NCBI GenBank assembly: GCA_036676495.1 | Contig: JAKFCT010000024.1 | Coordinates: 1-11,378 of the forward strand | DNA: 11,378 nucleotides | Direction: 5' to 3' | Source of the DNA: Candidatus Sericytochromatia bacterium | Lineage (GTDB): Bacteria > Cyanobacteriota > Sericytochromatia > S15B-MN24 > UBA4093 | In this document: in pieces, positions 10,194 to 11,378 of the stretch | Position numbering within the stretch: position 1 is the stretch's first letter | How the letters are laid out: every line of letters begins with the position of its first letter | The notes under the pieces: generated by a model | What the model was told of the DNA's origin: nothing | What the model saw: the letters and a program-made list of their open reading frames with translations, nothing else | Databases searched by the model: none | Position numbers and translations under genes: made by a program

Positions 10194-10745
10194 ATGGCCC
10201 TGCTCAAGATTGCCAAGCTCGGAACCCCGATCCTGCGGGAGGTCGCCCAGGAGCTGAGCCCGGAAACGCTGGCGCTTCCGGAAACCCAGGCCTTCATCGA
10301 TGATCTGATCGAGACCTTGCGGGATGCCAATGGCCTCGGCCTGGCCGCTCCCCAGGTCTACCGGTCGATCTCCATCGTGGCCATCGAAGGCAAAGGGCGA
10401 AACCCGCGCTACCCTGACGCTCCGCCAATTCCCCTCACGGTCCTGGTCAATCCGCGCTTCACCATGCTCTCCGAGGAGAAGGTCTGGGGCTACGAGGGGT
10501 GCCTGAGCATCGACAACCTGCGGGGCAACGTCGCCCGCTCCACCGAGGTCGTCGTCGAGGCGCTCGATCGTCACGGCACCCCCCTGCGCATCGAGACCGG
10601 CGGCTTCTTCGCCGTGGTGCTCCAGCACGAGATCGACCACCTCTTCGGCACGCTCTTCGTGGACCGGGCCGATCCCACGACCTTCGCCCACCAGCGCGAG
10701 TTCGACCGTCACGTCCTGCAAGCTCCCGTACCCATCACGGAGTAG
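10194..10745 (+). CDS. def: Peptide deformylase
   Basis: All three PDF motifs: GLGLAAPQ, EGCLS, QHEIDHLFG; AAGGAG RBS. Confidence 0.96.
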   Translation: MALLKIAKLGTPILREVAQELSPETLALPETQAFIDDLIETLRDANGLGLAAPQVYRSISIVAIEGKGRNPRYPDAPPIPLTVLVNPRFTMLSEEKVWGYEGCLSIDNLRGNVARSTEVVVEALDRHGTPLRIETGGFFAVVLQHEIDHLFGTLFVDRADPTTFAHQREFDRHVLQAPVPITE

Positions 10746-10758
10746 CGCACGTGGTTGA

Positions 10759-10864
10759 TGGCTCGGTCCGGAATGGAGTGGCTCGGTCCAGTCGGAACCG
10801 TCCTCCACGGATCTCGATAATGAAGTGGCTCGGTCCGGTCGGATCGGTCCTCCGCGGATCTCGA
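10759..10864. repeat. Degenerate tandem direct repeat: two 46-nt copies at 47-nt period plus one partial copy
   Basis: 10772-10817 versus 10819-10864 match at 41/46. The core TGGCTCGGTCC occurs three times (10759, 10779, 10826). Confidence 0.85.
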
Positions 10865-10871
10865 ACGCTTC

Positions 10872-10901
10872 CCCAGGCTAGAGTTTGGATTCTAGCCTGG
10901 G
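10872..10901. other. Perfect 11-bp hairpin, possibly the def 3' stem or the left boundary of the downstream element
   Basis: CCCAGGCTAGA (10872-10882) / TCTAGCCTGGG (10891-10901), 8-nt loop; no U-tract. Confidence 0.55.
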
Positions 10902-10910
10902 CCTGGGGAT

Positions 10911-11378
10911 CCGGGCCTTGCTGAGGTGGCCTGGGGGTCGGGGCCCCTGTCTCTTCGGGCCAAAGCGTTGGGTATCAAGCCTATCCCCGGGCCCTCGTGA
11001 CCTCCCCGACTCGTTGCGGCCCGGCACGCTAGTCGAGAGTCCGCTTGAGGACTCGACCGCCCTTCCCTCGCCATCATTGCCAAGATTCCCCTTCGCTTCG
11101 GAAACATCCGGCGGGGAAACACCCGACGGTGCCCGTGCCTGCCTTCGGGCACATGAAGGAAGGCTGCCGGTCACACTCTCGGCGGGCTCAGCTTCGAGAG
11201 CTGCCGTGTTCTTCGTCAAACGGATCACGAAAACTCCGATGGCCACCCGTTGTGGGAGGGAAGGGCGGTCGAGTCCATCAGCGCCCCCTCGACAGCGGGC
11301 CGGGCCGCGACGGAGTGGCAACGCGCAGGATGCGCTAGGGCGGCGAAGGCCACGGATGGCCGAGAGCCGCCGTCTCGG
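10911..11378 (+). ncRNA. Candidate large structured non-coding RNA or palindromic repeat element, unclassified, probably truncated by the window end
   Basis: Long-range pairing of 11009-11076 with 11251-11316, including a perfect 21-bp helix (11049-11069 / 11256-11276); inner hairpins including TGCC-TTCG-GGCA; two terminal GGA-loop hairpins; no credible ORF. The pairing is seen directly; RNA status and strand are inferred. Confidence 0.5.

Follow-up and report, generated by a model that had tools for sequence, protein, structure and literature searches.

An oversized, GC-rich foldback repeat, probably a MITE-like element, and a nested 57-nt hairpin motif in an uncultured bacterial lineage

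Eukaryotic foldback (FB-type) elements are long imperfect palindromes with terminal sub-repeats and a variable centre. REP and BIME repeats are modular, palindromic and extragenic, and the number of units varies from site to site; REPs are 20–40 nt long and are associated with RAYT (Y1) enzymes. The MITE E622 has long terminal repeats and a Tn3-family parent. A review (PMC10969869) describes MITEs as AT-rich and shorter than 500 bp, with terminal inverted repeats (TIRs) of 4–30 bp, and gives E622 of Pseudomonas syringae as a MITE of 611 bp. Rickettsia palindromic elements (RPEs) are described in the same review as hairpin-forming repeats of about 150 bp, located in intergenic DNA or in frame in unrelated genes, where they are translated as a conserved peptide (PMC10969869).

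Here, we analyzed a window of 11,378 nt, which is the whole of contig C24 in the MAG G000 (4.14 Mb, 106 contigs, 91.9% complete, 6.7% contamination). Two genomes of the same genus, G001 and G002, were used for synteny. The original prediction placed a rod-like, branched structure at 11009–11316 and read it either as an unclassified structured RNA or as a palindromic mobile element.

Architecture of the element

The insertion at the window locus is about 850 nt long and extends from near 10746–10822 to past the window end. Its features and the flanking gene are given below.

10194..10745, plus strand: def (peptide deformylase gene), the flank; Pfam Pep_deformylase, E 3.6e-42
10746..10821, plus strand: left extension of the insertion, made of partial tandem copies of the left terminus; repeat search; absent from the empty site of G002
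10822..10950, plus strand: left terminal inverted repeat; BLAST to right ends, alignment of 7 left and 6 right ends
10951..11011, plus strand: sub-terminal segment on the left; conserved in every copy extending this far (copy alignment), full-length folds
11012..11069, plus strand: inner left arm of the long stem; sequence reading, repeat search, arm alignment
11070..11255, no strand assigned: unique 186-nt centre of this copy; its small hairpins are poorly conserved; copy alignment
11256..11312, plus strand: inner right arm of the long stem; sequence reading, repeat search, arm alignment
11316..11372, plus strand: nested 57-nt three-helix motif, model R1; cmsearch 70.3–70.4 bits, covariation
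11373..11378, plus strand: element runs off the window; the remainder lies on contig C3, about 51–268, as the right terminal inverted repeat followed by the GTCAAGAATTGCTTGAGCAATCAGACCTAC module

Similarity between copies starts at about 10822 (GGCTCGGTCCGGTCGG...) and persists to position 11378, where the window stops. Contigs C47 and C3 both open with the final 50 nt of the window, letter for letter, and on them the repeat extends about 175 nt beyond this overlap and ends in ...CCCGGACCGAGCC. The def gene has an orthologue in G002 (87% amino acid identity); the homology stops at the stop codon and resumes past it in sequence that matches C3. Because of this resumption, the window could be paired with C3 and the insertion of about 850 nt defined; the C24–C3 pairing rests on synteny with G002. 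The limits 11009 and 11316 proved too narrow, since the unit begins about 190–260 nt further left and runs about 220 nt past the window end.

The first and last 100–130 nt or so of the element are inverted copies of each other, and within them a terminal core of about 28 nt is far better conserved. This core, the first 28 nt or so, reads GGA(A/G)(G/C)GGCTCGGTCCGG(T/G)CGG(T/A)(A/T)CGGTCC and gives the best match to the right end. By BLAST on the reverse strand, the left end matched the heads of C47, C3 and C84 and the tails of C98 and C103 with 76–78% identity over 83–135 nt. The left extension contains GGCTCGGTCC at 10760 (10760–10769) and a 46-nt duplicate (10772–10817) that is 89% identical to 10819–10864; in other copies, 0–3 partial tandem terminus units are found at the left end. 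At the right end, a module of about 32 nt with the palindrome ATTGCT-TG-AGCAAT is present in four of the seven copies and in part in a fifth. This module was considered as an independent REP-like target and rejected, as it occurs in the genome only beside the element.

Around a unique centre, whose length ranges from 186 to about 375 nt, the left half (about 250 nt) and the right half (about 300–350 nt) are arranged as inverted copies that have diverged from each other; because of this arrangement, either strand folds into one long rod. Two copies were reconstructed, and their two strands folded at −460 and −474 kcal/mol (copy 1, 775 nt) and at −558 and −549 kcal/mol (copy 2, 953 nt). In the full-length fold, 10951–11011 pairs loosely with the right half. 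The structure at 11009–11316 is, in these folding models, the apex (apical third) of a near-continuous rod formed by the whole element.

The GC content of the element is 64–67% (66%). GC3 in its reading frames is mostly 0.59–0.77 and GC2 mostly 0.57–0.73, compared with 0.81–0.95 and 0.38–0.61 in the flanking genes, and the codon-position GC pattern of these genes is absent from every frame of the element. The long open frames on both strands were therefore ruled out as genes by codon-position GC, together with frame-breaking indels. A Pfam search with the two longest element ORFs of the window returned nothing.

Copies, empty sites and mobility

We counted the copies in the genome itself by BLAST and found seven dispersed copies, all intergenic. 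The seven left ends lie on C16, C22, C24, C32, C60, C94 and C99, and the seven right ends on C3, C47, C57, C84, C98 and C103, with a degenerate one on C60. Nearly all of these ends sit at contig ends, as expected of a repeat that breaks the assembly. Synteny gave the pairs C24–C3, C32–C47, C99–C84, C16–C98, C22–C57 and C94–C103, and the C60 copy is internal to its contig. Where it could be measured, the length of the insertion was about 560, 720, 850 or 1030 nt.

A single copy without empty-site alleles in relatives had been named beforehand as a finding that would speak against mobility. Such alleles were found at all seven sites, each of which lacks the element in G002 and/or G001; at these loci the relatives hold 9–135 nt between the flanks, compared with about 560–1030 nt in G000 (7/7). 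Exact matches to the terminal 15-mer number 11 in G000 and zero in each of G001, G002, G005 and G008, and in these four relatives matches with one mismatch were not above a reversed-pattern control. A BLAST search with 10822–11378 in 40 relatives recovered the element in none (0/40) and only fragments of at most 48 nt.

The C32 copy lies downstream of the cytochrome bd subunit II gene (cydB). Within its inserted DNA, which is absent from G002, the first 55 nt or so are homologous to def around its 3' end and stop codon: the last 50 nt or so of the gene (10697–10745) and 6 nt past the stop codon are duplicated there. This fragment (G000:C32:25598–25660) is about 85% identical to 10697–10751 of the window. 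Since it begins with DNA of the def flank, the C32 copy came from the def locus or its ancestor and took upstream flank along.

Taken together, the repetition, the terminal inverted repeats, the absence at seven orthologous sites in congeners, the carriage of flanking DNA and the lack of a coding signal point to a MITE-like, non-autonomous foldback DNA transposon, non-coding, with seven intergenic copies and moved by an enzyme in trans; we put the probability of this reading at roughly 75%. The mobile-element half of the original prediction is in this way supported by the seven copies, the seven empty sites and the flank DNA brought from another locus. What is said here of transposition as the mechanism, and of the identity and even the class of the enzyme, we infer from these observations. 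An enzyme supplied in trans would recognize the terminal motif of about 28 nt, which stands in inverted orientation at the two ends and recurs on the left in additional, partial direct copies, and it would move the unit into intergenic DNA.

The family resembles MITEs in being non-coding, in having terminal inverted repeats and in its multiple dispersed copies with insertion polymorphism, and it departs from them in size and composition (560–1030 nt, long TIRs, 64–67% GC). At the seven junctions, compared with relatives by eye and by local alignment, there was no consistent target-site duplication, the flanks being 7–27% diverged; a candidate 5-nt duplication, TCGAA, was found at C32/C47 only. 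The ends are asymmetric, with direct partial repeats on the left and, in four of seven copies and partially in a fifth, the separate palindromic module on the right. Such asymmetry and the carriage of upstream flank are not typical of cut-and-paste TIR elements.

No autonomous partner with matching ends was found in G000, a 92%-complete MAG; all 14 ends belong to the non-coding copies. Searches of this genome for transposase-like domains gave a single broken DDE_Tnp_1, a single rve and a weak Y1, while ISL3 had no match. Near the DDE_Tnp_1 locus and the rve locus, which were examined for element-type ends, there were none. A weak, partial Y1 transposase-like domain (E ~5e-9) is located at G000:C48:6110–6346 and at G002:C67:46778–47017; because it is also present in G002, which has no foldback element, it is not an obvious partner. 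Outside the genome, the TIR pattern had a single match in genome_contigs, which by eye is a chance match in GC-rich, coding-looking sequence, and a 20-mer of the left arm had no match in metagenome_contigs. A 22-mer gave four matches, all of which read by eye as ABC-ATPase genes and were rejected. The element had no match in viral_contigs, nor in plasmids and phages searched with blastn in distant mode.

Several observations concern the neighborhoods of single copies. An AT-rich motif common to the left flanks of two copies had one exact match in the genome and was dropped. At the G002 site orthologous to the C60 copy (L028:1888–1990), about 63 nt are weakly similar to the terminal unit (TGGCTCGGTCAG, GGAATGGTCCAGTCC); this stretch may be the footprint of an older insertion, or it may be due to chance. 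Downstream of the C60 copy (G000:C60:4680–4820) is a small gene with an N-terminus that, by eye only, is like a Flp-type pilin; it is a tandem duplicate in G000, G001 and G002. Beside the C16 copy, about 2 kb (G000:C16:9800–11875) have no high-GC3 frame and a GC content down to 0.60–0.65, and this DNA is possibly foreign or non-coding.

The intergenic positions could also be explained in another way. The repeat could be a co-opted module acting in cis that recombination dispersed and the host retained for some function: a terminator, an insulator, a supercoiling or cruciform site, or the carrier of an operator for protein binding (ATTGCT-TG-AGCAAT). In its favor, the seven copies are without exception intergenic, and several follow directly on stop codons or terminators, 60–170 nt upstream of a co-oriented gene; the right-end palindrome is found only with the element; and two terminator-like sites were found where 0.2 were expected. 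However, the flanking genes are unrelated (def, cydB, the flp-like pilin recognized by eye, an LssY_C protein and others), congeners do without the element at all seven sites, and the internal structure varies widely among copies. A host function of this kind is therefore unlikely, and we prefer the transposon reading.

The long stem and the test for a conserved RNA

Reading of the sequence confirmed that 11049–11069 is the exact reverse complement of 11256–11276. Pairing had been predicted to continue outward to about 55–60 bp, and the arms 11012–11069 and 11256–11312 indeed align with 54 Watson–Crick pairs, 5 mismatches and 4 gap columns. In the repeat search the two parts of this stem were recovered as 11032–11069/11256–11293 (38 nt, 84% complementary) and 11012–11030/11294–11312 (19 nt, 89%).

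We folded both strands of 11005–11320 and compared them with shuffled sequences. The plus strand folded at −178.4 kcal/mol (shuffle mean −131.9, sd 6.2, z = −7.46) and the minus strand at −190.3 kcal/mol (z = −8.73), and on either strand none of 100 shuffles equaled the native value. The stability is thus far beyond chance on both strands. Because the minus strand folds even better than the plus strand, the structure is not strand-specific; it is real and non-random, but a property of the DNA palindrome rather than of one strand. Two details had been taken to favor folding of the plus strand. One was a G–U pair, which fails as an argument with one G·U pair in the long stem on each strand; the other was a C(UUCG)G loop, which is lost or altered in other copies, while both strands fold alike. 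Without strand asymmetry or covariation, fold z-scores of this kind say little.

The noted absence of hallmarks of RNase P, tmRNA, SRP, 6S RNA and group II introns agrees with the covariance models of Rfam, which match nowhere in the window. There were no matches at gathering threshold in the whole window, and no family, including HEARO, came near its gathering score. In E-value mode on 10700–11378, the best match had E = 1.7 and belonged to unrelated eukaryotic and viral families, and seven loci covering five other copies of the element gave no match at E ≤ 0.1.

The enclosed segment measures 186 nt in the window copy (11070–11255), a length particular to this copy. At the GAGG-flanked junction 11255/11256, the C32, C99 and C57 copies contain an additional 185–190 nt or so; in C32 and C99 this makes the interval between the arms longer by that length. 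It could be suspected that part of the window's 300-nt structure is an assembly artefact, in which a unique left part was chimerically joined to a collapsed repeat unitig at 11255/11256. From 11256 on, identity to the window is 100% for C99 and 99% for C32, compared with 86–87% upstream. In addition, 11229–11255 is spanned by no contig of X1, the run with most of the window's words, where the depth of 9.38 in that bin is spill-over from two adjoining contigs; the junction is thus without independent support, although contigs of a run show presence, not absence. The 4 nt shared at the junction (GAGG), however, are too short for a de Bruijn mis-join, and in C32 and C99 the two arms follow each other as in the window, around a longer centre. 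We therefore regard a chimeric join as quite improbable, and the stem is real either way, since those two long-form copies carry it as well. The short centre of the window copy is a candidate form.

Contigs of four runs were compared with the window, and only short fragments were found. Diverged pieces of the foldback repeat were detected in contigs of the other three runs (X2–X4), which come from two other studies; the family is thus not confined to one sample.

With 8–14% divergence among its copies, the family is not young. Three of six copies have lost 15 nt by slippage between two GGAAACA sequences, the gap of about 185–190 nt in the window copy is flanked by GAGG, and the deletion in C57 runs from GAGGGAAG to GAGGGAAG. 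One hairpin loop is inverted between copies. Microhomology deletions and loop inversion are the decay typical of selfish repeats.

If the fold were a functional RNA, its pairs should be compensated among copies. The consensus of the six centre-spanning copies has 23 pairs, and none of them is compensatory (0/23; covariation term +1.17, unfavorable). The small hairpins that had been listed in the enclosed segment are present in the window copy, but they are not conserved: they are deleted or broken in 2–3 of 5–6 copies. In three copies the 15-nt deletion removes half of the hairpin at 11108–11129, C32 and C99 have another sequence in place of the UUCG loop at 11140–11151, the hairpin at 11189–11203 is broken in C32, C99 and C60, and the CCTTC/GAAGG closure is broken in C57. 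In the long stem, left-arm substitutions raise the number of mismatches from 5 in the window copy to 10 in C32 and 7 in C99, and the right arms are unchanged; their identity (61/61) in the three assembled copies may reflect collapse into one sequence in assembly. In the alignment of seven left and six right ends, the left terminal repeats differ from the right ones by changes that are fixed and common to all copies; thus their pairing was inherited from a master copy and not maintained. We infer that neither the long stem nor the small hairpins represent a selected RNA fold; both would have arisen as by-products of the inverted-duplication architecture and, later, of deletions.

Seven paralogous genes for a structured non-coding RNA would agree with the very stable predicted fold (z = −7.5) and with the two C(UUCG)G-type loops and the GAAA-type loops of the window copy. 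All four copies between co-directional genes share the direction of those genes (weak, one-sided p ~0.06), and a co-oriented gene lies downstream of five of the seven copies, which is also weak. MITE transcripts can yield small RNAs (PMC10969869). Against such genes, the minus strand folds better, Rfam gives no match in the window or in the seven loci of five other copies, the consensus pairs and the left-arm substitutions are uncompensated, the hairpins are broken in several copies, no sigma-70-like promoter was found at the element and the differences between terminal repeats are not repaired, so that a functional RNA at 11009–11316 is very unlikely and this part of the original prediction is not supported. 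A false lead is removed in this way: a very stable, RNA-like fold of 300 nt is the tip of a palindromic selfish repeat.

The nested 57-nt motif and comparison with known systems

The 57-nt motif at 11316–11372 consists of hairpin 1, a CUGAU-like linker and an outer stem that encloses hairpin 2, both hairpins being of the form CA-SGGA-UG. In G000 it occurs only within the foldback element, once per copy and on the plus strand, and most of the length by which the right half exceeds the left is due to it. With filters off, no further degenerate copies inside the element reached E < 0.1. Most simply read, a small 57-nt element would have invaded the right arm before the foldback family amplified.

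Short matches in relatives gave the lead that the motif recurs outside the foldback element. A 22-nt core pattern with at most two mismatches was found in 7 of 61 genomes, and the reversed control in none of the 61. Among 12 motif sequences, 97.8% of cells were paired and 10 of 15 pairs were compensatory (0/500 shuffles equal; slid controls 28–44% paired). With 24 distinct sequences the values were 94.7% and 11 covarying pairs of 15, in an alignment fitted to the model. Of 27 genomes in the order, the covariance model placed the motif in 10, including two marginal cases; the highest count in one genome was 26 copies. By family, it is present in 6 of 8 genomes of f3, in none of 8 of f4 and in none of 20 from other families of the class. 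No Rfam family matches the motif loci. Beyond the window, the motif was recorded at L085–L113 (G005, G011, G013, G017, G019, G023 and G025). Tandem 57-nt units occur in G011 and G013.

Twelve of 23 motif sites lie inside long frames with coding GC3, in both orientations, and nine of ten proteins with an in-frame motif have Pfam domains, among them P-type ATPase, Ser/Thr kinase-AAA_16, PKS and AAA-ATPase_like/PDDEXK_9. Proteins of the last type (about 540–556 amino acids; L087, L088, L099, L106 and L112, from G025, G013 and G019) are a repeated target of the motif. Among five such homologues (78–82% identical to the first), an 18-amino-acid insert is present at one site in two of five, and a second site holds 0, 1 or 2 units of a RSRPSLASAESAHPWAS-like peptide, each of 17–19 amino acids. 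One insert site lies within each of the two Pfam domains. In its behavior the motif matches an RPE-like, in-frame palindromic element; in two related families it is a dispersed repeat.

In G005 (L060, L065, L068 and L070), four 57-nt units are each nested in a palindrome of about 110 nt, CCCCGCCCCC...GGGGGTGGGGGG, followed by AT..ATCAAGTTCC. The latter resembles GAATCCAAGTTCC in the right terminal repeat of the G000 element, which hints that the G005 palindrome and the G000 foldback repeat families share ancestry.

A Y1 enzyme was considered as the mobilizer of the motif and rejected, as the presence of Y1 does not track the motif and at least three motif-bearing genomes have no Y1 match. One could speculate, with little confidence, that the foldback element and the 57-nt motif are substrates of one hairpin-recognizing mobilization system in this order of uncultured bacteria from soil, which would be neither a DDE enzyme with matching ends nor Y1/RAYT. 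Such a system would copy from a fixed end, sometimes into the flank (as for the def fragment at the cydB locus), without ordinary target duplication. If true, this would be a new mode of non-autonomous DNA mobility.

To the few mobile elements described in this uncultured lineage, the analysis adds a foldback element of unusual size and high GC content, for which seven insertions are datable and one flank capture is recorded. The family is a new one of a known general kind with unusual proportions. Its likeness to the FB-type elements of eukaryotes is architectural only, and the mobilization differs. Like REP and BIME repeats, the element is modular, palindromic and extragenic, with a variable number of units, whereas the 57-nt motif differs from REPs in that Y1 presence does not track it.

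The closest systems are the prokaryotic MITEs. As described (PMC10969869, PMC3189936), Correia, Chunjie, QMITE and MITEPsy are, like the element, non-coding, with TIRs, dispersed intergenic copies and no transposase of their own; they also have internal-deletion variants, and their transcripts or DNA are predicted to form stable stem-loops. Compared with the MITE dimensions in the review (PMC10969869), the element is larger (560–1030 nt vs. <500), has longer inverted repeats (about 100–300 nt vs. 4–30) and is richer in GC (66% vs. AT-rich). Further differences are that it has no visible direct repeats and no related IS that was found, that one terminus occurs in partial tandem copies and that one copy carries upstream flank. 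E622, likened here by its description only, is also an oversized MITE consisting mostly of inverted repeat; it differs in its parent, which is said to be known (none was found here), and in host and GC content. Thus, the element is MITE-like in logic and an outlier in form.

The 57-nt motif resembles the RPEs as a small hairpin repeat that is found both in intergenic DNA and in frame in unrelated protein genes. It differs from them in length (about 51–57 nt vs. about 150 bp), in its distribution over free-living soil lineages of one order and, in G000, in its confinement to the foldback element. As a compact, strongly covarying unit in ATPases, kinases, P-type pumps and polyketide synthases of two bacterial families, it may be the more useful by-product of this analysis: a free-living counterpart of RPEs, and a natural experiment in how proteins tolerate insertions.
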